DNA from: Alphaproteobacteria bacterium
GTDB lineage: Bacteria > Pseudomonadota > Alphaproteobacteria > SMXP01
NCBI GenBank assembly: GCA_028280675.1
Contig: JANQLI010000129.1
Coordinates: 1,833 to 65,832 of the forward strand
Direction: 5' to 3'
DNA: 64,000 nt
Shown here: piece by piece, positions 9,768 to 55,827 of the stretch
How the letters are laid out: the number at the start of each line of letters is the position of its first letter
Numbering within the stretch: position 1 is the first letter of the stretch
The notes under the pieces: model-generated
Seen by the model: only the letters and a program-made list of their open reading frames with translations
Databases searched by the model: none
Told to the model about the DNA's origin: nothing
Translations under genes and position numbers: made by a program

Positions 9768-9768
9768 A

Positions 9769-13159: not shown

Positions 13160-13435
13160 TTGTTCCCTCATTCGTCCCCCGTTTCTTTAAGGGGCATCCT
13201 GTTAATTTTGAATACTACGTGTAAGCTGACCAACTCGTACTCAAATAGTCATTTTGGAAAGTGCGAGACTTCCTGCGCCCACGGGCGTGAGTTTTTAACC
13301 TTAAATGAGACAAAAAAAAGGCACCAATGAATCGCGGATGTGACGGGCTTTTTATTGACCACATATTGGTATGAATAAAACTTAAGGTTCAATGGAACAC
13401 AACATATTGCGTGGAGTTTAAGTCCTTATGGCCGT

Positions 13436-19241: not shown

Positions 19242-19384
19242 TAATTGTTGCGAAAATTAGCTTCAAGTCCAAAATGCGCTGCCCGGAATGACTCCCTCTC
19301 CCGCAAAAACATGCTATGACTATCGCTTACGGGGGTAGAGTCCCCTGCCATGTACGGCGTTAGGAATTAAAGGCAGCCATACCG

Positions 19385-38303: not shown

Positions 38304-38308
38304 GGGCG

Positions 38309-39178: not shown

Positions 39179-39231
39179 CACGTCTGGTCCTTTCTTCAGT
39201 ATAAACCTAGATTCATCATGATCAAAGGCAC

Positions 39232-40278
39232 TTAACGTAAACCTAACCTCTCGCCACCATAGGCGTTCGACTTTGATTGTCCCCAAGAAGAATACTCAAG
39301 ATACCATTCCACCGTTTTGCGCAGACCTGTGTCAAATGTCTCTTCCGCCTGCCAGCCAAGGTCAATCTCAATTTTACTTGCGTCAATCGCATAACGGAAG
39401 TCGTGTCCTGGGCGATCAGTTACATAGGTGATCAGATCGCGATAAGATCCACCCGCGCGAGGACGTAATTCATCCAGTAAATCACATAAAGTATGAACGA
39501 CTTCGAGATTGGTCCGCTCATTGCGCCCACCGATATTATAGCTTTCGCCGATCACGCCTCGCTCCAAGGCGAGCACCAAACCTTTGGCATGATCGTCCAC
39601 ATAGAGCCAATCACGGATATTCTCGCCCTTGCCATAGACTGGCATTGTCTCCCCGGCGAGGGCCTTGAGAATCATCAACGGAATCAGTTTTTCCGGGAAC
39701 TGATAGGGGCCATAATTGTTCGAGCAGTTGGTCAGAACGACTGGCAAACCATAGGTTTCATGCCAAGCGCGCACCAAATGATCGGAAGAGGCTTTACTGG
39801 CCGAATAAGGCGAACGCGGGTCATAGGGAGTTGTCTCGGTGAACACCCCTTCCGTGTCTAAGCTGCCAAACACTTCGTCTGTGGAGATATGATGAAACCG
39901 GAAGCGGGCACGCGCCGCTTGTGGAAGATGCGTCCAATACGCCGTCGCAATGTCCAACAGAATTTGCGTTCCAACAATATTAGTTTGAATGAACTGCCCT
40001 GGACCATCAATAGACCGGTCCACATGGCTTTCCGCGGCTAAATGCATGATGGCATCGGGTTGATAGCTCTGAATCACACGAGATACTTCAGCGGCATCGC
40101 AAATATCCACTTTTTCAAAGCTATACCGCGGATGACCCTCCGCGCCGGGAATCGCCTCTAAATTGGCAGCATAGGTGAGCTTATCGAGGTTTATGACGCT
40201 ATGATCCGAGTTGGCCAGAAGATGTCGAATAACGGCAGACCCGATGAACCCTGCCCCGCCTGTCACCAAAATACGCAT
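39232..40278 (-). CDS. rfbB: dTDP-glucose 4,6-dehydratase
   Basis: [14 protein letters not shown] plus the YxxxK catalytic region. At 348 aa it matches RmlB. Confidence 0.9.
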
Positions 40279-40543
40279 GATTTCATCCTAAACCGTTATG
40301 AGACATTAATTAAGCCGATTGACCGGATTTCAACGTTTCAATGGTTGTATTAGAGCATCCCTGCCCGCAGAGCAATCTTATCCCCCATAACAAATCCAGA
40401 AAGCCTATAGGATGGATAATTATGTATTCAAAATAAAAAATATTTAGAGAACACGGATAAAGATATATTAAAGGCGCAACAGTAAAAACTAGATATCATG
40501 CGAATCTCGGAATTGTTGTTAAAATCCGTAGGAATACCCAGCT

Positions 40544-42745
40544 GTGAAACAGTCAAATGAGATTGCCAATCGCACCCTAGGCGGCAAAGTCATCACAAAT
40601 CTTGTAAACATTTTCAGACTGGTTCTCCAGCATCCACGCCAGAGTTTGCAACGCGTGAACACGCACACGCTTAAAAGATTTGTTTATTTGCTGATAAAGC
40701 AACCTCATCTGCTACAGGACGTCACCTCACAATATTCCGGTGAATTTAACCGTGAGAAGGCCCCATCCGTCTACCATTTGAAAAAGTTTAGTCCCGAGGA
40801 ATTGGATACGCTTGATTGGAGTTTGCCAGACCCTAAGAATCCTGTCGTTAGCGTCATCATCCCAGTTTATAATCAACTCAATTATACCTTAAACTGCCTT
40901 CTCTCGATTATTGAGAATCCACCGCAATGCAGCTTTGAAGTGATTGTTACCGATGATTGTTCAACCGATAACACGGAAGACGTACTCAAACGGATTGAAA
41001 ACCTTACATATAGACGAAACCCTGAGAATCTTGGCTTTTTACGCTCGTGCAATGCAGCGGCTGAAAATGCCAAAGGTGACTATATCTTTTTCCTCAATAA
41101 TGACACCTTAGTGACGCCCGGATGGCTTGATGAACTCCTCAAGGTTTTTCAATCGCAGCCAGATACGGGCATTGTTGGCTCCAAATTGATTTTTCCCGAT
41201 GGATATGTACAAGAATGCGGCGGTATTGTTTGGAGTAATGGTTTAGGATGGAATTATGGGCGAGGGAGTGACGCTCGTCTCCCAGAATTTAATTATCTTA
41301 AAGAATGCGATTATGTTTCCGGTGCAGCGCTTATGATTGGAATATCTCTCTTTCGGGACCTTGGTGGATTTGATGAGCGCTATGCACCGGCATATTATGA
41401 AGACACCGATCTGGGTTTGGCAGTGCGTGACATTGGAAAAAAAGTGTACGTGCAACCGCTATCCACAATTGTCCATTTCGAAGGCGTTTCAAGTGGAACA
41501 GATGTGACAGCGGGCGTTAAGAAACATCAAATCGTCAATCATCAAAATTTTCGAAAAAAATGGGGGTCACGATTAAGGAGTGATCATCACAATGAACGCA
41601 CTGATATGTTTACTGCCCGTGACCGATCCAAAGATAAAACATGTGTTCTTGTAATTGATCATTATGTTCCACACTTTGACCAAGACGCTGGATCGCGATC
41701 AACATATCTTTATCTCAAAGCATTGGTTACTGCAGGATACAACGTTAAGTTTTTAGGCGACAATTTCGCGCAACATGAACCCTACACAACAGAACTGCAG
41801 CAATTAGGAATTGAAGTTCTGTATGGAAATTATTATCAAAAATATTGGCGCGACTGGTTAACTCAAAACGCACAGCATATTGATGTCGTCTACATACATC
41901 GCCCGCATATAGCCAAAAAATATATCGATTTTATACGCGCTAAAAAACAAAAAATAAAAATTATTTATTTCGGTCACGATCTCCATTATCTCCGTCTTGA
42001 AAGAGAGGCTGTAATATCTTCTAAGCCATCACTCAAAAAGAAAATTGAAAAACAACGCAACGAAGAGTTTCAGATATTTACAAAGGCCGATCTCGTTTAC
42101 TATCCCTCGCAGGCTGAAATAGATGAAATCACAAAACACAATCCTGATTTAAACACCCGCGCCATTCCACTTTATGTTTTAAGTAACGAAGAAACTCTCC
42201 CTTATTCACATGTGGATAGAGAAGGTATATTATTCGTCGGTGGGTTTAATCACCCTCCAAATCTTGATGGAATATTATGGTTTATCGAGGAAATATTTCC
42301 ACGTATTCAAAAAGATATTCCTGATATTCAGTTGCACATCGTCGGCTCCAATATGCCCGACGAACTCTTGCGTCAAGGAAACAATTTCATCCACGCGCAT
42401 GGTTATCTGACGGAAGGGGACTTAGAGAGTTTATACCGACAGATACGCCTCTGCATCGCACCATTGCGTTACGGCGCGGGGGTCAAAGGAAAAATATTAG
42501 AATCTATGAAATATGGCATTCCTGTTGTAACAACGGAAACTGGCGCCGAAGGGATACCAAACGCTGCCTCATGCCTCGATATTCAAGATGATGCGGAAGA
42601 CTTTGCAATGAGTGTGGTAGATTTGTATAAAAACGAAAATAAATGCCGGGAACTCATAACAAGTGCGCAAAAGATAATTGAAGAATATTTTAGCGAAGAT
42701 GCTGTAATGAAAGTGATCAAACGTGACTTCACACCTTTTAAATAA
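40544..42745 (+). CDS. Two-domain glycosyltransferase: N-terminal GT2 (GT-A) fused to a C-terminal GT4-like (GT-B) domain
   Basis: GT2 signature (VSVIIPVYN...VTDDCSTDNT...DXD). The C-terminal domain carries a glycos_transf_1 motif (PLRYGAGVKGKILESMKYGIPVV) and is paralogous to the C-terminus of the 45233-47995 product. Confidence 0.7.
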   Translation: MKQSNEIANRTLGGKVITNLVNIFRLVLQHPRQSLQRVNTHTLKRFVYLLIKQPHLLQDVTSQYSGEFNREKAPSVYHLKKFSPEELDTLDWSLPDPKNPVVSVIIPVYNQLNYTLNCLLSIIENPPQCSFEVIVTDDCSTDNTEDVLKRIENLTYRRNPENLGFLRSCNAAAENAKGDYIFFLNNDTLVTPGWLDELLKVFQSQPDTGIVGSKLIFPDGYVQECGGIVWSNGLGWNYGRGSDARLPEFNYLKECDYVSGAALMIGISLFRDLGGFDERYAPAYYEDTDLGLAVRDIGKKVYVQPLSTIVHFEGVSSGTDVTAGVKKHQIVNHQNFRKKWGSRLRSDHHNERTDMFTARDRSKDKTCVLVIDHYVPHFDQDAGSRSTYLYLKALVTAGYNVKFLGDNFAQHEPYTTELQQLGIEVLYGNYYQKYWRDWLTQNAQHIDVVYIHRPHIAKKYIDFIRAKKQKIKIIYFGHDLHYLRLEREAVISSKPSLKKKIEKQRNEEFQIFTKADLVYYPSQAEIDEITKHNPDLNTRAIPLYVLSNEETLPYSHVDREGILFVGGFNHPPNLDGILWFIEEIFPRIQKDIPDIQLHIVGSNMPDELLRQGNNFIHAHGYLTEGDLESLYRQIRLCIAPLRYGAGVKGKILESMKYGIPVVTTETGAEGIPNAASCLDIQDDAEDFAMSVVDLYKNENKCRELITSAQKIIEEYFSEDAVMKVIKRDFTPFK

Positions 42746-42880
42746 CCCTCCTTGCCTTTTGCATTCTCAACGCTGCGTTATTGTGAACATTCATATTTTT
42801 AAGTATGCGTATGGATGAAATTTTTTCCATGAAGACTAATGTTACGAACGCAAACGTCGAATACAGCTAAGGTTCTGAGG

Positions 42881-44065
42881 ATGATAAGGGTCTATACTTC
42901 TTGCACGAAAAGTTATTTGCCGAAAGCGCGTGTGGTTGCTCATTCCCTTAAAGAACACCACCCAGATTACTTTTTTTTACTGGTCTTTAGCGATTCGCTC
43001 CCTAGAACTTTTAATCTTGAGAATGAGCCCTTTGATGCTGTGTTAACTATTGATGATATGAACATCGAAGATAAGACGCGATGGATATTTACGCATAATG
43101 TCGTTGAGCTTTGCACTGCTGTTAAAGGATATGCCCTGAAATACTTACTCAGTATGGAGAACACGGATGCGGTTTTCTATCTTGACCCTGATATATGGGT
43201 GCTGAGCTCTTTTGACTCCCTCGTCAACTTATTTAAGCAATATGATATACTTCTCACGCCCCACATTCTTGCGCCAGAAACTGAGAAATGGGAGATCCAT
43301 GCGAAGGAAATCGTCACAACTCTCGCCCATGGCGTGTTCAATCTCGGATTCATAGGGATCAAAAATTCACCTGAAGGACACGCTTTTGCGGAATGGTGGA
43401 AACAACGTCTTATGTATTTTTGCTATGATGACGTCCCGCTTGGAATTTTTACAGATCAACGTTGGTGCGATCTCGCTCCGATCTTTTTTCCTTCAGCACA
43501 TATCGTACGCGACAAGGGGTGTAATGTTGCGACATGGAATATTACACACCGTCCCATAACGCGGTCTGGAGAAACTTTTTACGCTGATAATGAACCGATC
43601 AAATTTTATCACTTCACAGGATTTGATGCAGGGAGAAATTTCAGCGACCTATTATTGAAGCACGCAGAAGAGCATCCAGCAGCACTCGATCTATGGAATG
43701 CTTATGGAGATTACCTCAAACAACATGGTCATTCTGATGAATCGTTAAAACATTGGAAATACGAGCACTTTGCAAACGGAAAAAGGATCAGTGCAAAGTC
43801 GCGCCAAGTCTACCGTGATAATCATGAACTTCAAGAGAACTATCCGGATCCTTTTGCGGAAGGTGAAAGCAGCTATTATGATTGGTGCAATTCGGTTGGA
43901 TTGTTAAATGAAGATTCTGATTCTTGGACTCATGAACGTTACGAACTAGAAAGTAAATATGAAAGTCAAATTGAAAATCTACATGAGGATATAGATCGTA
44001 TCTATAATTCATTTAGCTGGAAAATTACAATGCCACTTCGCCAGATTAAAAGATTATTTAGCTAA
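42881..44065 (+). CDS. Putative GT-A-fold glycosyltransferase (DXD-type), family uncertain
   Basis: YLDPDIWVL DXD-like motif and sugar-nucleotide transferase-like hydrophobic patterning. No firm family assignment. Confidence 0.3.
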   Translation: MIRVYTSCTKSYLPKARVVAHSLKEHHPDYFFLLVFSDSLPRTFNLENEPFDAVLTIDDMNIEDKTRWIFTHNVVELCTAVKGYALKYLLSMENTDAVFYLDPDIWVLSSFDSLVNLFKQYDILLTPHILAPETEKWEIHAKEIVTTLAHGVFNLGFIGIKNSPEGHAFAEWWKQRLMYFCYDDVPLGIFTDQRWCDLAPIFFPSAHIVRDKGCNVATWNITHRPITRSGETFYADNEPIKFYHFTGFDAGRNFSDLLLKHAEEHPAALDLWNAYGDYLKQHGHSDESLKHWKYEHFANGKRISAKSRQVYRDNHELQENYPDPFAEGESSYYDWCNSVGLLNEDSDSWTHERYELESKYESQIENLHEDIDRIYNSFSWKITMPLRQIKRLFS

Positions 44066-44141
44066 AAAGACAATTTAGAGCTCAAGCAATCAATTATAAA
44101 TATAAACAACAGATTGATATCTTACCCCTTGGAAGACAAAG

Positions 44142-45236
44142 ATGGCAAAACCAGTACTAGTTCTTCATATCGGTCTACCAAAAACAGGCTCCACAGCAGC
44201 CCAAGAGTTTCTCTATGCCAATAGAGAATTACTCAAGACGCAGAAAATTTATTATCCCAACACAGGTATTATTGATGGAGCGCATCATCTATTAGCTACA
44301 TCGCTTTTAAAGCGCGTCCCCCCCGCTTTGCAAAAATTACCTCGACCTAACTCGCAAGCGATTTATCGAGATCTCATAAATAATTTTAATCACTCTGGAT
44401 GTAATACAATGCTCCTTAGTACAGAGTATTTTTCATTATTTGGTTTTCCATATCAGAAACATGGCCGAGAATTTATTGCAGATTTTTTTCGTGATTTCGA
44501 CATACGCATCCTCGCCTATCTTCGCCATCAATTACCCCGCTATGAATCTACGTACAGCCAAGAGGTGCGAAACGCAAAACTATCCCAACCTGTGTACCAC
44601 CAAGAATTTTTTCAGGATTTTATATCGCGAAAGGGAAATTACTACACATTTCTAATTGACCAGTGGGCTGAAACATTTGGAAAGTCAGGACTTATAATCA
44701 GGCCTTTTGTACGATCTCTTTTGCACAAGCGGAATATAATATATGATGTACTAGACCAAATTAACGCACCCTTAGATGCCACATGGAAATTTCCAATGCA
44801 CGAAGCTAATCAGGCTCTTTCGTATTATCGTATTGATCTCCTCAACAAACTTACTACCCTGTCACTTCCTAGAGATGTTAAAGACTCATCTTATGATGCA
44901 ATATCATCACTTCCGCTTCTTGACTGTGAGCGCGTCAAAACAACCATACTGTCTGACAAAGAGCGGGCCCTTTTGATCACACAATTTGAAGAAGATAATC
45001 AGAAACTAAATTTAAAGTATAAAGATGCTCTCAAAGGCCTTACGCTTGATGCACAACAGTTAGATAAAACACCAAAATACCATGAAGGCCTTGATCATAT
45101 TTTTCTCCATCAATTTGCAGATAAATTCTCCGATAAGCATAATGATCTAGGACGAGAGTTAAGTACATTAATCCTCTCACAATGCAAGCAAGACGATATG
45201 TTAAAATCATTTGCTGATCAGCTCAATAAACTATGA
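44142..45236 (+). CDS. P-loop sulfotransferase-like protein
   Basis: N-terminal LVLHIGLPKTGSTAAQ resembles the sulfotransferase 5'-PSB P-loop. It is paralogous to the N-domain of the next gene. A sulfotransferase function is inferred only. Confidence 0.35.
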   Translation: MAKPVLVLHIGLPKTGSTAAQEFLYANRELLKTQKIYYPNTGIIDGAHHLLATSLLKRVPPALQKLPRPNSQAIYRDLINNFNHSGCNTMLLSTEYFSLFGFPYQKHGREFIADFFRDFDIRILAYLRHQLPRYESTYSQEVRNAKLSQPVYHQEFFQDFISRKGNYYTFLIDQWAETFGKSGLIIRPFVRSLLHKRNIIYDVLDQINAPLDATWKFPMHEANQALSYYRIDLLNKLTTLSLPRDVKDSSYDAISSLPLLDCERVKTTILSDKERALLITQFEEDNQKLNLKYKDALKGLTLDAQQLDKTPKYHEGLDHIFLHQFADKFSDKHNDLGRELSTLILSQCKQDDMLKSFADQLNKL

Positions 45237-47995
45237 AGAAGATTATAATCCATATCGGCATTCATCGGACAGCCACCACAGCTCTTCAGTCATTTTTACG
45301 TGAGAATAAGCTCCTGCTGGAGGATCATTCTATTAGGATTCCAGAGACTGGTTATGCATTGGGGTCATCTCATCAATTGCCTTGGTGTTTTCTTCGAGAT
45401 CTTCCTACTCATTACCCAGTATCACCTTTATCGCACAGAGAGTTATTTAATAACTTAATTGAAGAAATTGATTCCCGGCCCGAAAGCATTTTTATCCTTT
45501 CAAGTGAAGACTTCTGCTTAATTGACAAAGATTCAGCAAAGGAAAATCCAAGCCTTGATGAAATTGCAAACTATTTAAAGAAGTATGATGTGACCATCAT
45601 CGCTTATCTTCGTAATCAAGTTGAATTCATATCTTCCTATTTAAATCAGGCTATTAAAGCTTACGACACCCGAATCGTCCCCCAAACAGCCGAATCCGTA
45701 AACTCCTATTTCAAGAATGTATTGGATTATGAAAAACTTCTAGAGCGCTGGGGTAAAGCTTTTGGAGAAGACAATCTTTGTGTTCGTTCATTTCATCTTG
45801 CAGTGAGCGAAGACGGTATTATTGCTGACTTCCTCTCACAAGTTGGTATTGAGATGGAGTTAAAGACCTCAACTCCAACAAATCAGTCTCTTGATGAGAA
45901 AACGTTGTCTTTTCGCAAATACCTAAATACGCTTCCCGTTGAAACTGTTACATTAGCGGATTTAGAGAGCGGTCTAAACGCACTATCACGTGATACTCCT
46001 GCTGCATCTTTAGATCGGGCAACAGCTAAAAAATATCAGGGCGTATATACAGAAATAAATCAAAGAGTAGCAGCATCTTTTTCACCACTGAACCCACTTA
46101 ACTTCTTGCCTCCCATCAACGATCAGTTATACCCTGAGATATTAACTGATAGACATATATCTCTTGATGATAAACTTAACTTATCAAATGCGTTATTTGC
46201 TCAGCTCTCTAGTGATCACCTCAATACAATAACTAGAATTGAACAAGATTTTGTTCTGTTGAGAGAAGATCTGCATGGTATACGCGAGGATACACATCAA
46301 GCCCGTGATGATTTCCATATGCAGAGGGACGATTTTCAACTGCAAAGGAAAGAATTCGTTAAACAGGAGGAGGAATACAATAAGCTAAAACAGAAGCTAT
46401 TAGAAATAAGAGGTGAGCTCAATGAATTGAAAGAGTCCCACTCTTACCAAGTTCATGCCCTCCAAGATAATCTGTTGCAATCAGAACATATTCACACTGA
46501 TATGGCTATGCAGAGCTTTCGCCGCGCGCGCAGAGCTATTTCACCCCGCAGACGGCTGAATGAAACCTTCGGAAAGGATGAACGCATTATTCAATTTTCG
46601 CCTCTTTTTGATGAATCGTATTACCGAGACCTATATTTAAAGGACTCAACAACCAGACTAACAGCAGCCAAACACTATTTAAAAATTGGCGCTGCAGCAG
46701 GGTTTAATCCATCAGCTCACTTTAATACGATTGAGTATATTCGCTCTCATGCGCATGTTGCATTAGCGGGCATCAACCCGATCGTCCACGCTGAGCAAAC
46801 CAGATATACATTACCCGAGAGCAAAACTAATGTTACCGCACATAAAAAACAGCATATCGTGATCATTGACCATGAGATTCCAAAGTTCGACCAGAACGCA
46901 GGTGCGCGGCATACACATCATTATATCAAGTTATTTCTTGAACTCGACTATGACGTCACTTTCCTTCCGTTTTGCGATGATCCAGTTGATTTGAGTCTTC
47001 TGCAATCTATACGACAAATGGGGGTCACTGTTTTAACGCACGAAGAAGAAAACAAAATATGGACGCCGGCAGCCTGGCATGGCTGGTTAGAGACAAACCA
47101 GAGCCAAATCAATTTGGTATATATTCACCGCCCACATGTTGCCGAACACTATATGAGTTATTGCAAGAATATACTTGAGCTTCCTGTCTGGTATATGTGT
47201 CATGATCTCCATTATCTACGTCTTCAAAGAGAGGCAGCTATTAAAGGCAAAGACAGTGAACAAGCACTCATTATGAAAGAAAAAGAACGCCACTTTTTTG
47301 CCATGGCAGATCTCAATTTTACACCAAGCCGAGAGGAGGAACGCTTGGTGAGAGAAGAATTCGGCATCACGTCGATTAAGACTCTACCATTATATCTGTA
47401 TGATGATCAAAGTAAGTCCAGTTCAATAGCAGAGAGAAGCGAGCGTATTCTTTTTGTCGGTAGCTTTCAACATCAACCGAACATAGACGGTTTACGCTGG
47501 TTTATTGAACACATATACCCGAAGATAAAAACCAAAACGCCCAACATCTTGATTGATATTGTAGGAAAAAATCCACCTTCTGACTTTACATCGCTAGAGG
47601 ACAGCCAACTTATTTTCCATGGTTATGTGGGTGATGAAGAGCTGGAGTTATTATATGCACAGGTCAAAGTTGTCGTGATGCCATTACGGTATGGGGCAGG
47701 CGTCAAAGGCAAAGTGCTTGAGGCAATGCGCCACGGTGTGCCATTTGTGGCTACATCATGCGCCTTAGAGGGTATTCCAGAACTTGCCGGAATAATTCCC
47801 GCTACCGATGATGACATTAGCTTCGCCAATGCTGTTTTAACAATGCTCACAAAAAATGAGCACGATTTGAAAATTTTGACAGACCAATTCGCTGAAATCA
47901 TTCAGACATTTTATTCTTTGCGGGCTGGGAAAAGCTTGATGGCACCGCTCCTTGAGGAATATTTATTACCCCAATCGGAGCGGACAAATCAATGA
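45233..47995 (+). CDS. Three-part protein: sulfotransferase-like P-loop domain + long coiled coil + GT4 glycosyltransferase domain
   Basis: N-terminus IIIHIGIHRTATTALQ is paralogous to the 44142 product. The central part is heptad-rich (EQDFVLLREDLHGIREDTHQARDDFHMQRDDFQLQRKEFVKQEEEYNKLKQKLLEIRGELNELK). The C-terminus has a GT-B fold (PLRYGAGVKGKVLEAMRHGVPFV) and is paralogous to the C-terminus of the 40544 product. Confidence 0.5.
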   Translation: MKKIIIHIGIHRTATTALQSFLRENKLLLEDHSIRIPETGYALGSSHQLPWCFLRDLPTHYPVSPLSHRELFNNLIEEIDSRPESIFILSSEDFCLIDKDSAKENPSLDEIANYLKKYDVTIIAYLRNQVEFISSYLNQAIKAYDTRIVPQTAESVNSYFKNVLDYEKLLERWGKAFGEDNLCVRSFHLAVSEDGIIADFLSQVGIEMELKTSTPTNQSLDEKTLSFRKYLNTLPVETVTLADLESGLNALSRDTPAASLDRATAKKYQGVYTEINQRVAASFSPLNPLNFLPPINDQLYPEILTDRHISLDDKLNLSNALFAQLSSDHLNTITRIEQDFVLLREDLHGIREDTHQARDDFHMQRDDFQLQRKEFVKQEEEYNKLKQKLLEIRGELNELKESHSYQVHALQDNLLQSEHIHTDMAMQSFRRARRAISPRRRLNETFGKDERIIQFSPLFDESYYRDLYLKDSTTRLTAAKHYLKIGAAAGFNPSAHFNTIEYIRSHAHVALAGINPIVHAEQTRYTLPESKTNVTAHKKQHIVIIDHEIPKFDQNAGARHTHHYIKLFLELDYDVTFLPFCDDPVDLSLLQSIRQMGVTVLTHEEENKIWTPAAWHGWLETNQSQINLVYIHRPHVAEHYMSYCKNILELPVWYMCHDLHYLRLQREAAIKGKDSEQALIMKEKERHFFAMADLNFTPSREEERLVREEFGITSIKTLPLYLYDDQSKSSSIAERSERILFVGSFQHQPNIDGLRWFIEHIYPKIKTKTPNILIDIVGKNPPSDFTSLEDSQLIFHGYVGDEELELLYAQVKVVVMPLRYGAGVKGKVLEAMRHGVPFVATSCALEGIPELAGIIPATDDDISFANAVLTMLTKNEHDLKILTDQFAEIIQTFYSLRAGKSLMAPLLEEYLLPQSERTNQ

Positions 47996-48066
47996 ACGCG
48001 GCTGTTTACATTTCACACGCGCCCTACCAAGGAAAATCTGGCTAACTTTTTCCTAGGGAGCAATTC

Positions 48067-49968
48067 GTGCCGAATTACTATCGCCCAGAAATTGATGGTC
48101 TCCGCGCAATAGCGGTTGTGAGCGTTATTCTATTTCATGCGGAGTTTACGTTATCTGGGACAACCCTCTTTCAGGGAGGATACATCGGAGTTGATGTGTT
48201 TTTTGTGATCTCCGGTTATCTCATCACACTCATCATCATCAGAGAATTGGCACAAGATAAATTTAGCCTAAAGAATTTTTATGAACGGCGCGCTCGGCGT
48301 ATTATGCCAATATTACTAACCGTGACGTTGTTAACAACATTGGCAGCGCTCTTTCTCATGCCTCCCCAACCGCTGATGTCGTTTTCTTTGTCAGCGATCA
48401 CGACATTGTTTTTTAGCTCAAACATTTACTTCTTTTTAGACAGCAATTATTGGGCGGAGCCAAGCGCGCTGAAGCCACTACTACACACCTGGAGCTTAGC
48501 GGTTGAGGAACAATTTTATATTTTGTATCCGTTTATGTTAATAGCACTGTGGCGATACTTTAAGAATCACCTTGTTTTTATTCTTGGTCTCATAACAATC
48601 ACGTCTTTAGGTCTCGCACAATACGGAAGCTCTCAATTTATAGAAGCGAATTTCTATCTCCTTCCGTCACGGGGCTGGGAATTGATGGCTGGTGCTATCC
48701 TTGCTCACATCGAGTTAACATCTGGGCGTAAAATTGAGAGTCGATTTACTAAGGCCTTACCCATTCTGGGATTCGTTTTCATTATTTGTGCGGTTTTGCT
48801 ATTTGACGAGACAACTCCACACCCTTCCTTAGTTACACTTCTCCCAGTCGCAGGAACCATGCTGCTTATTTGGTTCTCGCAAGAAGGAGATTACATAACT
48901 TGGCTCTTAAGTCGTCAAATATGCGTCCGCATCGGCCTTCTTTCATATTCACTCTATATGTGGCATTTCCCACTTTTTGCTTTTTCAAGACTCACACAAG
49001 CATCAGAATCAAATTTAGATAAATTTCTGATCATTATGTTGACAACAATTCTGTCTTCTATCGGCTATATAGCGATTGAAAGAAGGGCGCGCATTCAAAA
49101 TAAGCTGTCCACGAAGCTATTCCTGATGATCGTCGTCACGGCATCACTTATTATTCTCATATTAAATGTTTATGCACTCCAGGCCAGAGGATCATTAACG
49201 GGCTCAGAAGAAGATGAAATCGCATTCGGTCCATATGACTACGCCAATGATTACCTAGCGCATACATGCTTTCTTGAGCCAGATGATATGTCTGAACCGC
49301 TTCCCTTTAAAAGGTGCACTGCAAAAGGGAAAACTGACGGCCCCACAATGCTTTTATGGGGTGATAGTCACGCTGCCCACCTCATACCCGGACTTATTGA
49401 GAATTTTGCCGATACATATAATATCATTATTCGGACATCCTCAGACTGTAGACCTATTTTAAATCGCAATCCAAAACACAGGCCCTTCTGCAAGAACATC
49501 AATGATAATATTTTTCAATATGTCAAAGAGACAAGGCCATCGCATGTGTTAATAGCGGGCAGATGGCAAAGGGAACAATATACTTTAACAGTCTCACTTA
49601 TCAAAGAATTGAAACGAGCGGGTGTCAAATTTATATATGTTGTTGGTCCAGTGCCCCATTGGTCTAAAGGCTTGCCGATTCGGCTTTATCAACAGCTTGG
49701 CCCCCAGGAAATTCCGAATATATATTCCATCCCGCAATATTTGCTTGATGATAGGAATGAGCCCTATATCGCTATGGACCAAAAGATGCAGGAGTTTTTC
49801 AGTGAGTTGGACGTTACATATATATCACCCATATCTATACTATGCCGACCGGAAAAGGGCTGTCTTACCTATGCAGGAGACAAAGATAAAGCCCTCGTGC
49901 AGTGGGATTCATCTCATCTGACGCGTCATGGCTCCTCATACTTAGTTAGACGTTTTGAAATACGGTGA
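48067..49968 (+). CDS. Acyltransferase-3 (OafA/YrhL) family O-acyltransferase with C-terminal SGNH domain
   Basis: N-terminal motif EIDGLRAIAV...FFVISGYLIT, about 10 TM helices, and a C-terminal SGNH-like hydrolase region. Confidence 0.8.
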   Translation: MPNYYRPEIDGLRAIAVVSVILFHAEFTLSGTTLFQGGYIGVDVFFVISGYLITLIIIRELAQDKFSLKNFYERRARRIMPILLTVTLLTTLAALFLMPPQPLMSFSLSAITTLFFSSNIYFFLDSNYWAEPSALKPLLHTWSLAVEEQFYILYPFMLIALWRYFKNHLVFILGLITITSLGLAQYGSSQFIEANFYLLPSRGWELMAGAILAHIELTSGRKIESRFTKALPILGFVFIICAVLLFDETTPHPSLVTLLPVAGTMLLIWFSQEGDYITWLLSRQICVRIGLLSYSLYMWHFPLFAFSRLTQASESNLDKFLIIMLTTILSSIGYIAIERRARIQNKLSTKLFLMIVVTASLIILILNVYALQARGSLTGSEEDEIAFGPYDYANDYLAHTCFLEPDDMSEPLPFKRCTAKGKTDGPTMLLWGDSHAAHLIPGLIENFADTYNIIIRTSSDCRPILNRNPKHRPFCKNINDNIFQYVKETRPSHVLIAGRWQREQYTLTVSLIKELKRAGVKFIYVVGPVPHWSKGLPIRLYQQLGPQEIPNIYSIPQYLLDDRNEPYIAMDQKMQEFFSELDVTYISPISILCRPEKGCLTYAGDKDKALVQWDSSHLTRHGSSYLVRRFEIR

Positions 49969-50028
49969 TAAAGTGATTGAAAAATATGTATAGCTGAATG
50001 TTGAACATCTAAGTTTAGGGGAAAAGGG

Positions 50029-51324
50029 GTGCCGCTCTCTGTCAGAAGATCTTACCGTGCCGCCGCGAATGCAATTTCCCGAGGGGAGGGTTGGGGGACT
50101 CTCACACGCATCAAAAATGAACTTCAAATGTCACCCGCGATGGAAAAAAGTGGCGATCTCTTTCGCTCTCTCTACAACCATCGCAATATTGATTGCGCGG
50201 CTAACCTCCTGAGCACATCAAATGGGTCAAAGTTTTTTGATTACGAACTGAGCACCATGGTGCCGGCAGCATACATGCCCCGCGTGCATACGGCATCGCA
50301 TTCCACACTTCTGCCCACACGTGCGGTTTATCCAAATGATTGGCAATTTGACGGATACTTTGACCACATTGCTTACGATAATAAAGGCAATCCCATCCCA
50401 TCGGCCAATCACCTTATCTCGCGCTATAAAGGGTATTTAGACAATCCGGAAATGCAAAATAAAGACATCAAGTTAACCCCCCTAGGGGGCCCCCATTATC
50501 ATATGGGTTTCTTAATCACCCATTATGGCCACTTTATACTCGAGGTATTGACCCGCTATTGGCATGCTTTGCAAACGGGCGTCGATCCAAACACCATTTT
50601 TGTGTTTCATATATGGCAACGCGATATTGAGAATGCTTTGAATGACGCTCTTAAAAATCGCCTTTTTAAAGGTTATTGGGCGGACTATCTCAATGCCCTT
50701 GGCTTGTCTCAAGAAAACACGCTCTTTCTGACGCACCCAACATCATTTCACTCAATAACCCTGCCGCAATATGCGGTCAGCCTGTCCGCCTCCGACTGTT
50801 TTATCAGTGATGCAGCTCTTCCTGTTTGGCGTTTTTTAAATAGTGAAATGTCCGCTGCCTATTATACAAATAATCCAGAAAAAAACTTTGGCGATCGCGT
50901 TTACATTTCGCGTCGTAAGGTCGCCAATCCTAACCGCGGCAGAGTCTATAGCAATGAAGCTGAGATTGAGGATCTTTTTCGTTCAAAAGGGTTTTTCATT
51001 CTCTACCCTGAAGACCTCGAATCTGAATATGAAAAACAAGCCGTGCTCTCAAATGTGCGCTTTCTCGCAGGCGCACCTGGGTCGGGCCTGCTAAGTTCAG
51101 TCTTTATTCCGCATCAGGCTGATGTCTTGATGATCATCAGTGAACAAGCCTACAAAACCAATCCAGCCGTGATCCATCAAATAGCCATGAATACCCTGGT
51201 GGGACATCGCACACACGCATATTTCGAGCATGATCTCGCGATGGGATCGGAGCCCCAACAACCTCCGATAAACTTAACAAAACTTGAAAAGGCGCTTGAT
51301 AAGACTCTGTCTTCCTGCCTATAG
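50029..51324 (+). CDS. GT61/DUF563-family glycosyltransferase (paralog 1 of 3)
   Basis: YHMGFLITHYGHFILEVLTRYW and the C-terminal ...EAEIEDLFRSKGFFILYPEDLESEYEKQAVLSNVRFLAGAPGSGLLSSVF match DUF563 core motifs. Probable GTG start. Confidence 0.5.
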   Translation: MPLSVRRSYRAAANAISRGEGWGTLTRIKNELQMSPAMEKSGDLFRSLYNHRNIDCAANLLSTSNGSKFFDYELSTMVPAAYMPRVHTASHSTLLPTRAVYPNDWQFDGYFDHIAYDNKGNPIPSANHLISRYKGYLDNPEMQNKDIKLTPLGGPHYHMGFLITHYGHFILEVLTRYWHALQTGVDPNTIFVFHIWQRDIENALNDALKNRLFKGYWADYLNALGLSQENTLFLTHPTSFHSITLPQYAVSLSASDCFISDAALPVWRFLNSEMSAAYYTNNPEKNFGDRVYISRRKVANPNRGRVYSNEAEIEDLFRSKGFFILYPEDLESEYEKQAVLSNVRFLAGAPGSGLLSSVFIPHQADVLMIISEQAYKTNPAVIHQIAMNTLVGHRTHAYFEHDLAMGSEPQQPPINLTKLEKALDKTLSSCL

Positions 51325-51337
51325 AGTTTGATAAACA

Positions 51338-52564
51338 TTGCCGAAAGACGAAGGCTATAAATTTGTAATGGCCCCTTATATTCCAAAAACGCAATACAAG
51401 GATTTATTTCGGCGTCTCTATACCCACGAAGACCTTGCCAGTTTTGAAACGTTAACACATCACCTCTCTGAACCGCCAGACTACTACAAACACAGTCTTG
51501 CTTTTTCTCCAGCAAATTTCACCCCAACCTCCATCGACGTTGATGGCGCTTATTTATTTCCATTTGTGGCACCACAACAAGTTCCCCAGTCACGCATTAT
51601 TGAACATGTTGTTTATGATCATGAACTCAATCCTGTGACAATCGCAAATCACATCAAGGCCTTTTATAATGGATATGAGGACCATCCAGATTTACCTGCC
51701 TACCCCTTCTCAAAGAACACCATACTCGAGCATATCCCCGGCACATCATACTATATGGGTCTTCTGCTTCCTCATTTTGGGCATTTCATTCTGGAAGTCA
51801 TCACGCGGCTTTGGTGTCGTTTGAAGGATGAAGAAAAAAAACTGTCGAAATTTATTTTTCATATTGTTGGTCAGCGCGATGAAGAGGGAATTAAGCAAAA
51901 TCTTTTTGGCGGTTATTGGAAAGCTTACTTTGATGCTTTCGGCATCACACCAGATAATTTTGTAGTCGCCAACCGTCCCCTTCACTGTGATAATTTAATT
52001 GTTCCACAATGCGCACTGAGTATTGGCGTTTACCGTGCACCCGATTGTTTCCTTTCAAAAGATGCTGTGCGTGTTTGGCGCGAAACGCATCGGCGTATCA
52101 TCGACTCTACACCACACACAGATCAAAATAGCGCCTATGAGAGGATCTATATCTCACGGAGAAAGGTTGAGAATCCGTTCCAAGGGCGATTATTAGAGAA
52201 TGAAGAAGACATAGAGCAGCTATTGATGAAAAAAGGATTTCACATCCTCTACCCCGAAGACATTAAGTCGGAAGCTGAAAAACATGTCATTCTCTCACAA
52301 TGCCGAACACTAACAGCTCTTTCAGGATCAGGCCTGATGAACAGTGTTTTCTTACCAAAAGGCAGTAAAGTTCTACAGATTATCAGTGATCAAATAAATC
52401 GCGGCTTGCCGGGACTTGAGCAACAAATCTCTATTGATACTCTCTGTGAACATCATTCATATGTTTACTACCAAGATGACTATGTGAGTGATACGAAGAA
52501 ATCAGCACGTATAGACCTTCGTCCCTTTGAAAGCGCAATTGATTCCTTTCTATATGACAAATAA
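51338..52564 (+). CDS. GT61/DUF563-family glycosyltransferase (paralog 2 of 3)
   Basis: HFGHFILEVITRLW ... GFHILYPEDIKSEAEKHVILSQCRTLTALSGSGLMNSVF. Confidence 0.5.
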   Translation: MPKDEGYKFVMAPYIPKTQYKDLFRRLYTHEDLASFETLTHHLSEPPDYYKHSLAFSPANFTPTSIDVDGAYLFPFVAPQQVPQSRIIEHVVYDHELNPVTIANHIKAFYNGYEDHPDLPAYPFSKNTILEHIPGTSYYMGLLLPHFGHFILEVITRLWCRLKDEEKKLSKFIFHIVGQRDEEGIKQNLFGGYWKAYFDAFGITPDNFVVANRPLHCDNLIVPQCALSIGVYRAPDCFLSKDAVRVWRETHRRIIDSTPHTDQNSAYERIYISRRKVENPFQGRLLENEEDIEQLLMKKGFHILYPEDIKSEAEKHVILSQCRTLTALSGSGLMNSVFLPKGSKVLQIISDQINRGLPGLEQQISIDTLCEHHSYVYYQDDYVSDTKKSARIDLRPFESAIDSFLYDK

Positions 52565-53747
52565 TTTCATGTTTGATCTTTTTAAACGACAGAATAAAAC
52601 AACACACCTTGCAACCCTCGCGGATGTCGGGACGAATCTGACACAGTCAGACCATTACGCACACTACCTCAAGAGCATCTCGGTATCGGAATTTACGCCA
52701 AAGGCAAGCACGGAGAAAGACGCCCTCCTCTTGCCATTGCATGCACACTTACAAATACCTGCCTCACTGATGATGGAGCATGCGGTTTATGACAATGCGC
52801 TGAATCCCATTACCTATGCAACCCACATCAAACCCCTTTACCGCGGATTTAAACTACATCCCGATCTCCCTAAATATCCGGGCTATGACCTATCAGAATA
52901 TGAAGCTCTTCCTGGCCGATCATATTATGGAGGCATATTACTAGATCAATTCGGGCATTTTATTCTTGAGACTCTCACCCGCTTTTGGCGCGCGGTGGAA
53001 ACTGAAGAGCGCAAATTTGATCAGGTTCTGTTTCATGTCCTCAGTGATCGCAATACGATGCATATGCGCAAGCGTCTCTTTCGTGACTTTTGGAGTAATT
53101 ATTTTCATGCCCTTGGCATTACGGAAGACAACTTTATTTTTATCGAGAAACCCTTCATTGCGGAAGAGCTTATTATTCCACAATGCAGTGTCAGTATTGG
53201 CATGTTTAATCGAAGCAATTGCTATATCTCGGAGAAAGCACACGGTGTGTGGTCAATTTTAAACCAGCGCATGGCAGGAGAGTATAGACCAAGCGACACC
53301 TCAACGGCACGTCCTGAAAAAATATATATGTCACGCCGTAATGTAAATTATTCGTTCCGCACAGGACAAATTGAGAACGAGGCCGACATTGAACACCTCT
53401 TCCGATCACGTGGATTCCATATCATTCGCCCTGAAGAACTCAGCTCAGAAAATGAGAAACACTATCTTCTCTCTGAATGTAAGATTCTCGCAGGGCCAAT
53501 TGGATCAGGTATGCACAATAGTGTTTTCATGAAACCTGGTGGGCATATTCTCAGCATCATTAGCGAGCAAATGAATGAAGGTGTGTGTGCGCTGGAGCAT
53601 CTTCTTGCACTCGGGGCGTCTCTTGGTCACAACATGTATCAATATTACCAATGTGACCTTGACCCAGAGCAGGAAAGTAAGGATAGCGTAATTAATCTCA
53701 CGCAACTTTCACAGGCGCTTGATCACTTTTTAGAGCGCAGCACGTGA
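52554..53747 (+). CDS. GT61/DUF563-family glycosyltransferase (paralog 3 of 3)
   Basis: QFGHFILETLTRFW ... GFHIIRPEELSSENEKHYLLSECKILAGPIGSGMHNSVF. Start is uncertain (52527, 52554 or 52569). Confidence 0.5.
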   Translation: MTNNFMFDLFKRQNKTTHLATLADVGTNLTQSDHYAHYLKSISVSEFTPKASTEKDALLLPLHAHLQIPASLMMEHAVYDNALNPITYATHIKPLYRGFKLHPDLPKYPGYDLSEYEALPGRSYYGGILLDQFGHFILETLTRFWRAVETEERKFDQVLFHVLSDRNTMHMRKRLFRDFWSNYFHALGITEDNFIFIEKPFIAEELIIPQCSVSIGMFNRSNCYISEKAHGVWSILNQRMAGEYRPSDTSTARPEKIYMSRRNVNYSFRTGQIENEADIEHLFRSRGFHIIRPEELSSENEKHYLLSECKILAGPIGSGMHNSVFMKPGGHILSIISEQMNEGVCALEHLLALGASLGHNMYQYYQCDLDPEQESKDSVINLTQLSQALDHFLERST

Positions 53748-53757
53748 CCCTGGGCAC

Positions 53758-54645
53758 TTACCATGGTTCATAACAATCATGAAAGCGCGCAAGAATGTCT
53801 TGATGATTCTCAACATACGTTGAGATGTCATCGGCATGCACTTTTTGAAACCGTGTTCCTGTGTCTAACGCCAACTGGATATCTGCATCTGTGACATCGA
53901 CGTCCAATGTATCGCACAAGGCACGGAAATGCGCCTTGGGATCTGACTGAAAATCTTCATAACGCAAGATCTCAACCCGCGCCCCAGCAGCATGTAGTTC
54001 TGAGACAATCTTCTTTTTACGCTTGTGAATATACCGACAGCGATGAATAAAAGTTCCTAAGCGGTCTACATCAACATAGATTTTTTCATGATTTGCATCA
54101 TGACTTCCTTGGAGATGCCCAAAACTATGCGTGCCATCGCCATGATAGGTCGAAAGCGCCCAGCGCAGAATGTCTTGGCGGACCGCCATAAACACAACCA
54201 CACCATAGGCACGAAAAATCCGAAAAAGTCTCCGCTTCATATCCCTTAAAAGGTAGTCATTATATTGCCGTTGAAAATATTGGGCCCACCGCGGCGATGT
54301 TTGCATTGTTGTCGCTAAGACACGTGACGGTGGATGAAGACGCATCTTAAACCCAATCGATTTGGATGCATCAATAGATGCAATTTTTTGGCATGATGTT
54401 TGCTGATAAGCAGCATTCACCTTATGCAAATCAACGGTGTGCCCTGAGAAAATCTCCTCAAAAATAAGCTCCAGATTTTTATTGGACATCGCACCGCACT
54501 TTGCAAATTCAAAGGGTTCCCACTGCGGGGTGGATTGTGCATCTGTTAGGGAATGAACGATTGAGAAAGCATCAAGATTATTCAAGAGAGACACTTGCGC
54601 CATTGTGCCTTCCTTTTCTTGAAAAATGATGACGAAATTCTTCAT
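53758..54645 (-). CDS. Hypothetical protein with sulfotransferase-like motifs
   Basis: Degenerate P-loop-like FVIIFQEKEGT near the N-terminus, and RYEDFQSDPKAHFRALCDTLDV resembling the sulfotransferase C-terminal YEDL..DP...LC.FLG block. It is the only minus-strand gene in this part of the cluster. Confidence 0.3.
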   Translation of the reverse strand: MKNFVIIFQEKEGTMAQVSLLNNLDAFSIVHSLTDAQSTPQWEPFEFAKCGAMSNKNLELIFEEIFSGHTVDLHKVNAAYQQTSCQKIASIDASKSIGFKMRLHPPSRVLATTMQTSPRWAQYFQRQYNDYLLRDMKRRLFRIFRAYGVVVFMAVRQDILRWALSTYHGDGTHSFGHLQGSHDANHEKIYVDVDRLGTFIHRCRYIHKRKKKIVSELHAAGARVEILRYEDFQSDPKAHFRALCDTLDVDVTDADIQLALDTGTRFQKVHADDISTYVENHQDILARFHDCYEPW

Positions 54646-54810
54646 GATGAGCTTTCACGCGTAGGTGCCATGTGATTCGCCAGCATCATAGAGACCGCGT
54701 GCGATGTGTCAAACAGCCAACAGTTTTGACGGGCGACACCCTATCCTGACGAAGTCTTAACCTGACGTCCTGAATGTGCTAGGAAACAGTATCACTTTCT
54801 TTATCACGGC

Positions 54811-55827
54811 ATGGTGCCTGGAAAGACAATCCGCACAATGACACACACCTACACCATTCGCCTTGCTGGAACAGACACAGCCATTGCCTGTCCTGAGAGC
54901 GTGTCTGTGCTGAATGGATTTTTAAATCAAGATGTGCAGCTTGTGCATGGATGCAAGAATGGCCGCTGCAAGTCATGCAAGGCGACCCTTCTTGAAGGTC
55001 GCATTCAGAACGAAGACGGGGAAACAATCGACTCAGGCGAATTTCTTAGTTGTTCGTATATACCCCTCTCCGACCTCGTGATCGAAGCGGACTATTGCCC
55101 TGAACTCGCGGATATTCAAAGGCGCACATTGCCCTGTAAAGTGAATCAGGCCACGTATGTGGGCGACGATATTCTGATTCTCACCCTACGCACACCTCCC
55201 AATCAGCGCCTTGTTTACCTCCCGGGGCAATATCTTGATTTAACGTATCAAGGGGTCTGCCGGTCCTATTCCATCGCCAATTCCCCAAATGCAGACGGCA
55301 CAATCGAGCTGCATATTAAACGCTATTCTGGCGGTGAAATGAGCGCTCTCTTTTTTGACAAGCCGATCACCACGAACACGCTCATGTCCATGCGCGCGCC
55401 CCTTGGGACATTCTTCGTCAGAGATGGAGAGGCCCCTTTAGTTTTCTTAGCCACAGGAACAGGGTTGGCGCCCATCAAAGCTATGATTGAATCTCTCATA
55501 CACGAGGGCGACAAACGGCCCATCACACTTCTCTGGGGCTGCCGCGAGGAGGCAGATTTTTATGACAAGCGCCCCACTGTATGGGCCTCTCAATATGATC
55601 ACATAAAAGTCGAGCAGGTTCTCTCAAAGCGTCAAAGAACCACAGCAAAAAAACACTATGTGCAAGATCATCTGTTAACCATACATCCCGATTTAAGCGG
55701 ATTCGATGTTTACGCTTGCGGGTCCCTGACTATGATAGAAGACGCGGAAAGCCTATTATGCGAATATGGCCTGGATAAGCGCCGGTTTTTTTATGATGCC
55801 TTTGTGGCATCCCATGAGAAGGATTGA
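54811..55827 (+). CDS. ddhD: CDP-6-deoxy-delta-3,4-glucoseen reductase (E3; 2Fe-2S ferredoxin + FAD/NAD reductase)
   Basis: Plant-type ferredoxin Cys cluster (C..GRCKSC...C), RSYSIAN FAD-binding motif, GTGLAPI NAD-binding motif. A start at 54838 is possible. Confidence 0.65.
   Translation: MVPGKTIRTMTHTYTIRLAGTDTAIACPESVSVLNGFLNQDVQLVHGCKNGRCKSCKATLLEGRIQNEDGETIDSGEFLSCSYIPLSDLVIEADYCPELADIQRRTLPCKVNQATYVGDDILILTLRTPPNQRLVYLPGQYLDLTYQGVCRSYSIANSPNADGTIELHIKRYSGGEMSALFFDKPITTNTLMSMRAPLGTFFVRDGEAPLVFLATGTGLAPIKAMIESLIHEGDKRPITLLWGCREEADFYDKRPTVWASQYDHIKVEQVLSKRQRTTAKKHYVQDHLLTIHPDLSGFDVYACGSLTMIEDAESLLCEYGLDKRRFFYDAFVASHEKD

Follow-up and report, generated by a model that had tools for sequence, protein, structure and literature searches.

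Enzymes that sulfate the sugars of bacterial polysaccharides are little known (PMC11641403). In Vibrio sp. KMM 8419, the capsule ->2)-a-L-Rha3S4Ac-(1->6)-a-D-Glc-(1-> is proven to be both sulfated and O-acetylated, and its gene cluster, with a lowered GC content, brings together rml genes, GT61, sulfotransferases, an acyltransferase, cysNDC and the ABC exporter kpsMTDE/S (PMC11641403); Cobetia marina KMM 1449 carries a related cluster (PMC11766843). A different modification of bacterial glycans is made by the terminators WbdD, WbbB and K. pneumoniae O7 ORF6, which act with methyl, phosphomethyl or Kdo caps (PMC11231755, PMC3482155); in the described capped systems, the cap is read by the carbohydrate-binding module (CBM) of Wzt (PMC11231755). 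Fused or multi-module glycosyltransferases are typical of ABC-transporter-dependent glycan assembly in general (PMC11231755). Here we describe a low-GC stretch (40279-54700) in a 64-kb window of DNA from an uncultured alphaproteobacterium, the window being the whole stretch of 64,000 nucleotides that was analysed. The low-GC stretch encodes glycosyltransferases, an acyltransferase and proteins with a sulfotransferase fold. We consider it likely, though well short of certain, that the strain-specific genes for assembly and decoration lie at 40.5-54.6 kb, within an O-antigen or capsule cluster of about 24.5 kb (37.7-62.2 kb), the product of which would be sulfated, exported by an ABC transporter and acetylated.

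Sulfotransferase-fold proteins in the low-GC block

The block holds the following features (coordinates, strand, description; aa, amino acids; GT, glycosyltransferase).

40279..40543, no strand: AT-rich divergent spacer between rmlB and the first glycosyltransferase gene, from sequence and composition; the GC fall starts here
40544..42745, plus: 733-aa GT2 (about aa 100-317) + GT4 (about aa 365-727) fusion; Pfam Glycos_transf_2 107 bits, Glyco_trans_1_4 88 bits
42839..44065, plus: 408-aa GT8-like (GT-A, DxD) candidate with a C-terminal extension; Glyco_transf_8 (PF01501) 23.1 bits, cut-off 24.3
44142..45236, plus: 364-aa sulfotransferase-fold protein of the family here called STL, which has no Pfam model; the gene overlaps the following one by 4 nt
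45233..47995, plus: 920-aa fusion of an STL domain (about aa 1-240, 45233-45952), a predicted coiled coil (about aa 324-408, 46202-46456) and a GT4 module (about aa 540-895, 46850-47917)
48067..49968, plus: 633-aa AT3 + SGNH acyltransferase of OafA/OafB-type architecture; PF01757 105 bits (aa 7-332), PF19040 115 bits (aa 412-631)
50029..51324, plus: GT61/DUF563 glycosyltransferase a; PF04577 52 bits, cut-off 27
51338..52564, plus: GT61/DUF563 glycosyltransferase b; PF04577 62 bits; 41% identical to c
52527..53747, plus: GT61/DUF563 glycosyltransferase c; PF04577 65 bits; probably starting at 52569, where the public gene call in L001 places it
53758..54645, minus: 295-aa protein with a sulfotransferase fold, from a second small family unrelated to STL; Sulfotransfer_3 19.9 bits, cut-off 27

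A first-pass annotation of this DNA had noticed a sulfotransferase-like domain common to two of these proteins. Indeed, the 364-aa protein and the N-terminus of the 920-aa protein are paralogous (BLASTP E = 2e-17 over about 230 residues), and to this we can add a fold, the conservation of the motifs for 3'-phosphoadenosine-5'-phosphosulfate (PAPS) and a linkage to adenosine-5'-phosphosulfate (APS) kinase. Single-sequence PDB searches with the 364-, 920- and 295-aa proteins returned nothing meaningful, and NCBIfam gave no match for the STL proteins. The predicted structure of the 364-aa protein is confident (predicted local distance difference test, pLDDT, 93), and in structure comparison its fold match was specific to sulfotransferases, with a wide gap to P-loop kinases. 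A single-query, word-indexed search with this protein gave three proteins; the STL family was built from a 6-sequence profile, which recovered 189 cluster representatives at E <= 1e-3. Among the 120 of them that were listed, none had a sulfotransferase Pfam domain and a few were called 'sulfotransferase' by NCBI or UniRef.

Sixty-six diverse STL members have in common a loop, HIGxPKTGTT, in which G11 and T15 never vary and conservation is at least 90% at K14, G16, T17 and T18; the loop of the 364-aa protein itself reads PKTGST. In the same 66 members, Y126-L-R128 is conserved and R128 invariant, in the pattern YLR128xQxxxxxS136. At S136, eight residues past R128, all sequences of the 6-member set agree, and Ser is the consensus there in the 66-member set; the 920-aa protein keeps the equivalents of both R128 and S136. 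E95 is also invariant and stands directly after the central strand in the model. We take the loop and the R128/S136 pair to be the 5'-phosphosulfate and 3'-phosphate motifs of PAPS-dependent sulfotransferases, the R128-S136 spacing being that of the 3'-phosphate motif of the cytosolic sulfotransferases. E95 presumably occupies the site of the catalytic Glu in carbohydrate sulfotransferases, judging from its place in the model.

The minus-strand gene that closes the block, to which the first-pass annotation had attributed sulfotransferase-like 3' motifs, is present, and beyond a weak C-terminal Sulfotransfer_3 match its product resembles sulfotransferases in structure. Its family counts 121 representatives at E <= 1e-3. 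An AF2 model of the 295-aa protein (pLDDT 92), compared with the PDB by Foldseek, gave sulfotransferases as 49 of the 50 top matches, the best being Stf0 at E = 4e-4, with modest TM scores of 0.31-0.53; searched against the PDB, the family profile gave 17 matches, all of them sulfotransferases and all weak (E >= 0.04). R156 and S165 are invariant in the family, which also has an EKEGS loop. The public gene call (L001, 15419-16264) starts at Met15 and gives 281 aa. The alignment of the homologues begins at residue 1, and F4 and G13 hardly vary in it; the product is therefore likely the 295-aa form, which holds the first strand and a P-loop-like EKEGT segment.

The other enzyme classes that had been listed for the block (GT2+GT4 fusion, DXD glycosyltransferase, OafA-type enzyme, three GT61) were all found in their places by Pfam, the GT8-like protein narrowly under its cut-off. 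The low-GC middle thus comprises seven glycosyltransferase modules: GT2+GT4, GT8-like, GT4 and three GT61. The GT4 modules of the 733- and 920-aa proteins are 38% identical; the GT4-module profile matched only generic GT-B enzymes, for example PimA and GlgA, and did not narrow the donor specificity. The GT8-like protein has a DPD motif (D116, D118) that is invariant in five homologues, and the profile of these five matched only GT8/glycogenin chains in the PDB, weakly (E about 0.04-0.09). It is 56-60% identical to its counterparts in two of the loci described below, L002 and L004 (56% for L002). The three tandem GT61 proteins are 36-41% identical to each other. The best NCBIfam match of the AT3-SGNH enzyme was the mycobacterial SucT, at 94 bits, far under the cut-off; with its two-domain architecture, O-acetylation by this enzyme is a fair prediction.

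Genomic context and route of export

In species-representative genomes, STL was found in at least 393 stretches from many phyla. We studied the context of 81 loci, namely 80 of these stretches and one metagenome locus, L002. They contain 136 open reading frames (ORFs) with the domain, often two to five per locus and often fused to other modules. Fifteen of the 81 loci carry an APS-kinase domain (cysC or fused cysNC) within flanks of about 10 kb, where about 0.7 would be expected even if two such genes are allowed per 4-Mb genome (binomial 6e-16, about 20-fold). GT2 modules were present in 36 loci, ABC nucleotide-binding proteins in 17 and Wzm in 15. The APS-kinase enrichment and the glycan-gene neighbours together make a strong case, by guilt-by-association, that the STL family uses PAPS and acts on glycans.

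A syntenic core was apparent in three loci, L002, L004 and L015, each with a GT8-like gene and STL paralogues beside wzm/wzt. L002, a metagenome contig of 59% GC, has a Sulfotransfer_2-like gene, a GT8-like gene, two stand-alone STL genes, an 878-aa STL-coil-GT4 fusion (34%) and GT61; ddhD, ddhA, ddhB, ddhC and a short-chain dehydrogenase/reductase (SDR) gene come next, ahead of wzm and wzt. The slot after the SDR gene, filled by wzm/wzt in L002, is occupied in the window (after the 296-aa SDR) by a C-methyltransferase and another SDR. L004, a metagenome-assembled genome (MAG) of Mariprofundaceae, has manC, a ugd-like gene, cysC, rmlACDB, the GT8-like gene, two STL genes, an 801-aa STL-coil-GT4 fusion, wzm and wzt. 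Its APS kinase gene (3516-4118; PF01583, E = 6.7e-68) lies between the ugd-like gene, of the UDP-glucose/GDP-mannose dehydrogenase family, and rmlA, on the same strand as the STL genes and wzm/wzt. L015 (Bacillota MAG) has wzm, wzt, a gene for a 1627-aa GT4 protein, a GT8-like gene and STL genes. Orthologues of the STL-coiled-coil-GT4 fusion are thus found in L002 and L004; a metagenome scan with the fusion-protein alignment gave one locus, matched in the GT4 part only. A further locus that is not syntenic with the window core, L028 ('uncultured delta proteobacterium' MAG, 4063-11053), has a stand-alone 366-aa STL gene about 4.6 kb from wzm and wzt. This wzt includes a Wzt_C carbohydrate-binding module (E = 5.6e-23), and no methyltransferase or kinase terminator was found among the ten ORFs scanned there.

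As the first-pass annotation had stated, the window itself has no exporter: ABC2_membrane, ABC_tran, Wzx, Wzy and Wzz matched none of the window ORFs of at least 150 aa, and none in the 4.9 kb beyond its right end (L003). That extension carries DUF2141, fatty-acid hydroxylase, TetR and HD-domain genes, and the contig goes on with unrelated genes. The same annotation had called the export route undefined, which goes too far given the wzm/wzt genes next to the same core in L002, L004 and L015. Traits of the ABC route in the window are the GT2+GT4 and sulfotransferase-coil-GT4 fusions and the lack of any Wzx/Wzy match on this contig. The concentration of fused and paralogous enzymes had been thought unusual, whereas fused and paralogous glycosyltransferases are the norm in ABC-transporter-dependent glycan assembly (PMC11231755). 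We favour the ABC route because of the synteny and because multi-module transferases are typical of it (PMC11231755).

The glycan may then be made as follows. Chain synthesis would take place on a lipid carrier, on the cytoplasmic side of the membrane, through the GT2+GT4, GT8-like and GT4 modules. There the chain would also be sulfated, with PAPS as donor, by up to three enzymes: the 364-aa protein, the N-terminal domain of the 920-aa protein and the 295-aa protein. Export would follow through a Wzm/Wzt-type ABC transporter which, with none in the window or in L003, would be encoded elsewhere in the genome. OafA-type enzymes acetylate on the periplasmic side, and the AT3-SGNH enzyme would O-acetylate the chain on this outer side of the membrane. 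The GT61 paralogues probably add dideoxyhexose or branched-sugar side residues; GT61 and ddh genes occur together in the window and in L002 and are both absent from L004. The resulting sugar coat, probably sulfated and acetylated, is predicted to be anionic and rich in deoxy sugars, with a rare branched sugar. The earlier suggestion of a heavily decorated polysaccharide, possibly sulfated and O-acetylated, thus agrees with the glycan-assembly block and with the AT3-SGNH enzyme; its sulfation is still a prediction, with no PAPS-synthesis genes in the window.

Several observations weigh against this reading. Neither the window nor the 4.9 kb past it has a transporter, an initiating phosphoglycosyltransferase, a ligase or PAPS-synthesis genes, so that export route and donor supply both rest on other genomes; with Wzm detected in just 15 of its 81 loci, moreover, the STL family is not bound to one export route. 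The search for sulfotransferase models gave only sub-threshold Pfam matches: 15.4 bits to Sulfotransfer_1 (cut-off 22) for the STL proteins, 13.1 and 12.1 bits to Sulfotransfer_3 (cut-off 27) for their relatives, and for the 295-aa protein the 19.9 bits listed above, a match confined to the last 42 residues. The four homologues of this protein that were looked up all lie on contigs of 2-4.4 kb, where the Pfam-called neighbours are housekeeping genes (leuA-like in L085, phosphoglycerate-dehydrogenase-like in L087) and not glycan genes. In the 920-aa protein, the loop reads HRTATT (aa 9-18, window 45233-45300), with Arg12 in place of the near-invariant Lys of the family; the L002 orthologue keeps the Lys. 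Judged from this substitution, the fused domain could be weakened, altered or non-catalytic.

Some of these observations would also fit proteins that keep the sulfotransferase fold and use another donor, or serve as non-catalytic binding or scaffold domains, leaving the product unsulfated. This would account for the absence of any Pfam sulfotransferase model at threshold, of cys genes in the window and of the Lys in the fused copy, and there is a precedent in A. salmonicida, where an ABC-type cluster has a sulfotransferase-domain gene and no sulfate is found in the O-antigen (PMC4483657). We nevertheless think it very improbable: the fold match is to sulfotransferases and far from kinases, both PAPS phosphate motifs and the candidate catalytic Glu are invariant or nearly so in the 66 diverse members, and APS kinase is enriched about 20-fold beside members of the family. 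Assembly by Wzx/Wzy (or by a synthase), in which flippase, polymerase and chain-length regulator would be encoded elsewhere and the multi-domain transferases would build a large repeat unit, is unlikely. It would be in keeping with the lack of any transporter in or just past the window and with the minority of STL loci that have Wzm. Seven glycosyltransferase modules, three sugar pathways and several decorations also fit a complex branched repeat, ABC-route O-antigens usually having simpler repeats (one with three sugars was a first; PMC4483657). On the other side, all the nearest syntenic loci have wzm/wzt beside the common core, coiled-coil glycosyltransferase fusions have been described as markers of the ABC strategy (PMC11231755), and the readable contig has no Wzy-like or Wzx-like membrane ORF.

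Within the ABC route, sulfate might also act as a chain-terminating cap. The segment of the 920-aa protein between the STL and GT4 domains is proline-free and heptad-rich at aa 324-408, with heptad-rich equivalents of about 65 residues in L002 and about 47 in L004 at the same place, as measured by a crude, home-made heptad score; weak matches to coiled-coil families fall in the same region (NCBIfam TIGR02680, aa 327-442). Such a coiled coil could be a ruler that holds the sulfotransferase domain away from the GT4 polymerase, so that the non-reducing end is sulfated at a set length, while the stand-alone 364-aa paralogue and the 295-aa enzyme decorate internal residues. WbbB and K. pneumoniae O7 ORF6 indeed have their domains in this order, a modifying domain first, then a coiled coil and a C-terminal glycosyltransferase (PMC11231755), the fusion is conserved across very distant hosts, and the L028 locus pairs the family with a Wzt that has a Wzt_C module. 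We hold this to be distinctly unlikely, since the Wzt proteins of the syntenic loci are short (239, 245 and 257 aa) and without CBM (ABC_tran only, in the scan for L004 and L015 and as a precomputed match for L002), the presence of two to five STL paralogues in one locus points to several sulfation sites, the predicted coil varies in length and is short (about 47-85 residues by the crude score), and the fused domain has Arg for Lys. We found no description of sulfate as a chain terminator in the literature searched, which did not cover the 2019 census of terminator chemistries. All together, sulfation within an ABC-exported, acetylated glycan is the reading that we retain.

Extent of the cluster and its flanks

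The GC content of 40279-54700 is 0.421, that of the remaining window 0.506; along the profile, values of about 50-55% across the window give way to 38-46% within 40-55 kb. The drop from about 40.3 kb relative to the flanking rfbB and ddh genes, noted in the first-pass annotation, was thus confirmed by the windowed values and also by the genes. The nine genes of the stretch have a mean GC of 0.424, compared with 0.524 in the 21 upstream genes, and at third codon positions (GC3) the means are 0.399 and 0.556 (Mann-Whitney p = 2.6e-5). The bracketing genes have a GC of 0.508 (rmlB) and 0.498 (ddhD), and the recovery starts at ddhD (54811). There is no tRNA at the edges of the stretch, no Rfam match, and no integrase, transposase or insertion-sequence family in any of the window ORFs scanned. 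With none of these elements, we dropped the idea of a mobile island: the stretch is foreign in composition, and it is not a classical mobile island.

Nor is it a self-contained unit, as the word 'island' had implied. The rml genes on one side and the ddh, SDR and C-methyltransferase genes on the other supply sugars, so the functional unit extends over about 37.7-62.2 kb, and the low-GC stretch is the variable, sugar-assembling middle of this surface-polysaccharide cluster of about 24.5 kb. Its low GC might come from recombination in which a variable block is exchanged and the sugar-pathway genes on either side stay conserved, as happens at other O-antigen loci. The flanking genes, and one convergent gene next to them, are listed below.

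37737..38312, minus: rmlC, dTDP-4-dehydrorhamnose 3,5-epimerase; TIGR01221 242 bits (cut-off 156), Pfam dTDP_sugar_isom E = 4.8e-73
38309..39286, minus: rmlA, glucose-1-phosphate thymidylyltransferase; TIGR01207 504 bits (cut-off 361)
39232..40278, minus: rmlB, dTDP-glucose 4,6-dehydratase; TIGR01181 481 bits (cut-off 365)
54811..55827, plus: ddhD-type reductase (Fer2-FAD-NAD), E3 of the 3,6-dideoxyhexose pathway, by Pfam architecture; 33% identical to the syntenic L002 gene; no equivalog over cut-off
55824..56606, plus: ddhA, glucose-1-phosphate cytidylyltransferase; TIGR02623 470 bits (cut-off 300)
56567..57685, plus: ddhB, CDP-glucose 4,6-dehydratase; TIGR02622 502 bits (cut-off 278)
57706..59019, plus: ddhC/rfbH, CDP-6-deoxy-4-keto-hexose 3-dehydrase; NF011936 741 bits (cut-off 423)
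59032..59922, plus: 296-aa SDR; Pfam Epimerase; a syntenic 290-aa homologue follows ddhC in L002
59966..61222, plus: NDP-sugar 3-C-methyltransferase of the TylC3/TcaB9 type; PDB 4rv9 E = 1.8e-89, TcaB9 1e-79; Pfam Methyltransf_13, _14 and _23
61219..62199, plus: 326-aa SDR, overlapping the methyltransferase stop by 4 nt; Pfam Epimerase/GDP_Man_Dehyd/RmlD_sub_bind; no equivalog passed
62220..63959, minus: 579-aa GT-C (PMT_2/ArnT-like) membrane glycosyltransferase, convergent; PMT_2 52 bits

The CDP-3,6-dideoxyhexose set is complete, DdhA, DdhB and DdhC being over their cut-offs and DdhD being assigned by architecture and synteny only. The 296-aa SDR is probably a CDP-dideoxyhexose 4-reductase or epimerase, to judge from its family and its place after ddhC. 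The dTDP-L-rhamnose set is incomplete: RmlA, RmlB and RmlC pass, and the window has no RmlD equivalog, the two SDRs reaching just 20 and 48 bits where 224 are required. Taken with the TylC3-type methyltransferase and the coupled 326-aa SDR, a candidate 4-ketoreductase for the branched sugar, the absence of rmlD suggests that 3-C-methyl-6-deoxyhexose, a branched sugar rare among surface glycans, is made in place of rhamnose or beside it. The convergent GT-C gene is an uncertain member of the cluster, as its product may either decorate this glycan in the periplasm or modify a lipid; it is followed by the DUF2141 and fatty-acid hydroxylase genes (L003, 8014-9632) and then by TetR.

Elsewhere in the window, a heparinase II/III-like protein (PF07940, E = 2.8e-69) is encoded directly upstream of a 662-aa UDP-GlcNAc 4,6-dehydratase of the WbpM/PglF type (17457-21373). 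Lying 16 kb from the cluster, these two genes may be a second glycan-related pair. At 11852-13171, on the minus strand, three tandem paralogous genes encode small proteins of 150, 136 and 130 aa with N-terminal segments resembling signal peptides and a common motif, LF.NT ... YYNPDG.V ... W ... C; the 150-aa member belongs to no Pfam family.

The host is from a poorly sampled alphaproteobacterial lineage, a placement that is coarse and comes from PurH, which is 70-73% identical to that of named Rhodobacterales and has a best match of 80%. Seven window proteins, including PurH and the acetyl-CoA synthetase Acs, were placed in 90% identity clusters: five stood alone and two had one other member. 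We found no homologue at least 90% identical to the window's own genes from any other sample, and the only contigs on which the 920-aa fusion and the 326-aa SDR turned up came from the same sample. That the region might be a known, characterised cluster was considered and dropped, the products of the 364-aa gene, rmlB, ddhC and the C-methyltransferase gene having no named or close (90%) relative.

Comparison with known systems

The locus points to two sulfotransferase-fold families, of which STL, for which Pfam has no model, is large and shows a strong link to PAPS-synthesis genes. STL recurs in a portable module with a GT8-like enzyme, joined by the coiled-coil GT4 fusion in the window and in two other loci. 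If the prediction holds, these proteins would provide sequence handles to find producers of sulfated glycans in genomes, candidate enzymes for the microbial production of sulfated polysaccharides, and a test case for sulfate as a chain-length cap. If, in addition, sulfate did prove to be the cap, this would be a new class of terminator, sulfate would join the methyl, phosphomethyl, Kdo and pyruvate capping chemistries, and a widespread bacterial polysaccharide sulfotransferase family that has no Pfam model would have been identified.

The closest described system is the cluster of Vibrio sp. KMM 8419, which, like ours, has rml genes, GT61/DUF563, several sulfotransferase genes, an acyltransferase and a GC content under that of the genome (PMC11641403). 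It also has kpsMTDE/S and cysNDC, whereas the window has neither (PMC11641403). Compared by description only, it differs further in that the paper reports no sulfotransferase-coiled-coil-glycosyltransferase fusion, ddh pathway or C-methyltransferase (PMC11641403).

With WbdD, WbbB and O7 ORF6, the 920-aa protein has in common an N-terminal modifying domain, a coiled coil (here a predicted one) and a C-terminal glycosyltransferase in one polypeptide, as well as multi-module glycosyltransferases as partners and, in the syntenic loci, adjacent wzm/wzt. The modifying domain is a methyltransferase, kinase or Kdo transferase in those proteins and a sulfotransferase fold here. Moreover, the syntenic Wzt proteins lack the cap-reading CBM, and the coil of the 920-aa protein is shorter, capping being a hypothesis in this case.

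Among sulfotransferases, the closest known to the STL proteins are the heparan-sulfate 3-O-sulfotransferases, the sulfotransferase domain of NDST and the bacterial structure 3rnl, at just 13-17% identity. Unlike these, the 364-aa protein belongs to no Pfam family and carries an additional C-terminal half, helical and about 130 residues long. The acyltransferase resembles Salmonella OafA/OafB by architecture, with AT3 and SGNH domains that are both well over threshold, and has the same O-antigen-type cluster setting.

The sugar pathways likewise have known counterparts. The Salmonella/Yersinia ddh/rfb pathway is matched by ddhA, ddhB and ddhC, all past their equivalog cut-offs, and the TylC3/TcaB9 3-C-methyltransferases by the window methyltransferase, through its match to 4rv9 (1.8e-89). 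Unlike either system, the window joins both pathways and an rml set without rmlD in one cluster, which is unusual. Nothing in the locus contradicts current understanding. What is new here is a sulfotransferase family outside Pfam, its fusion to GT4 by way of a predicted coiled coil, and the joint presence of ddh, rmlD-less rml and C-methyl genes.

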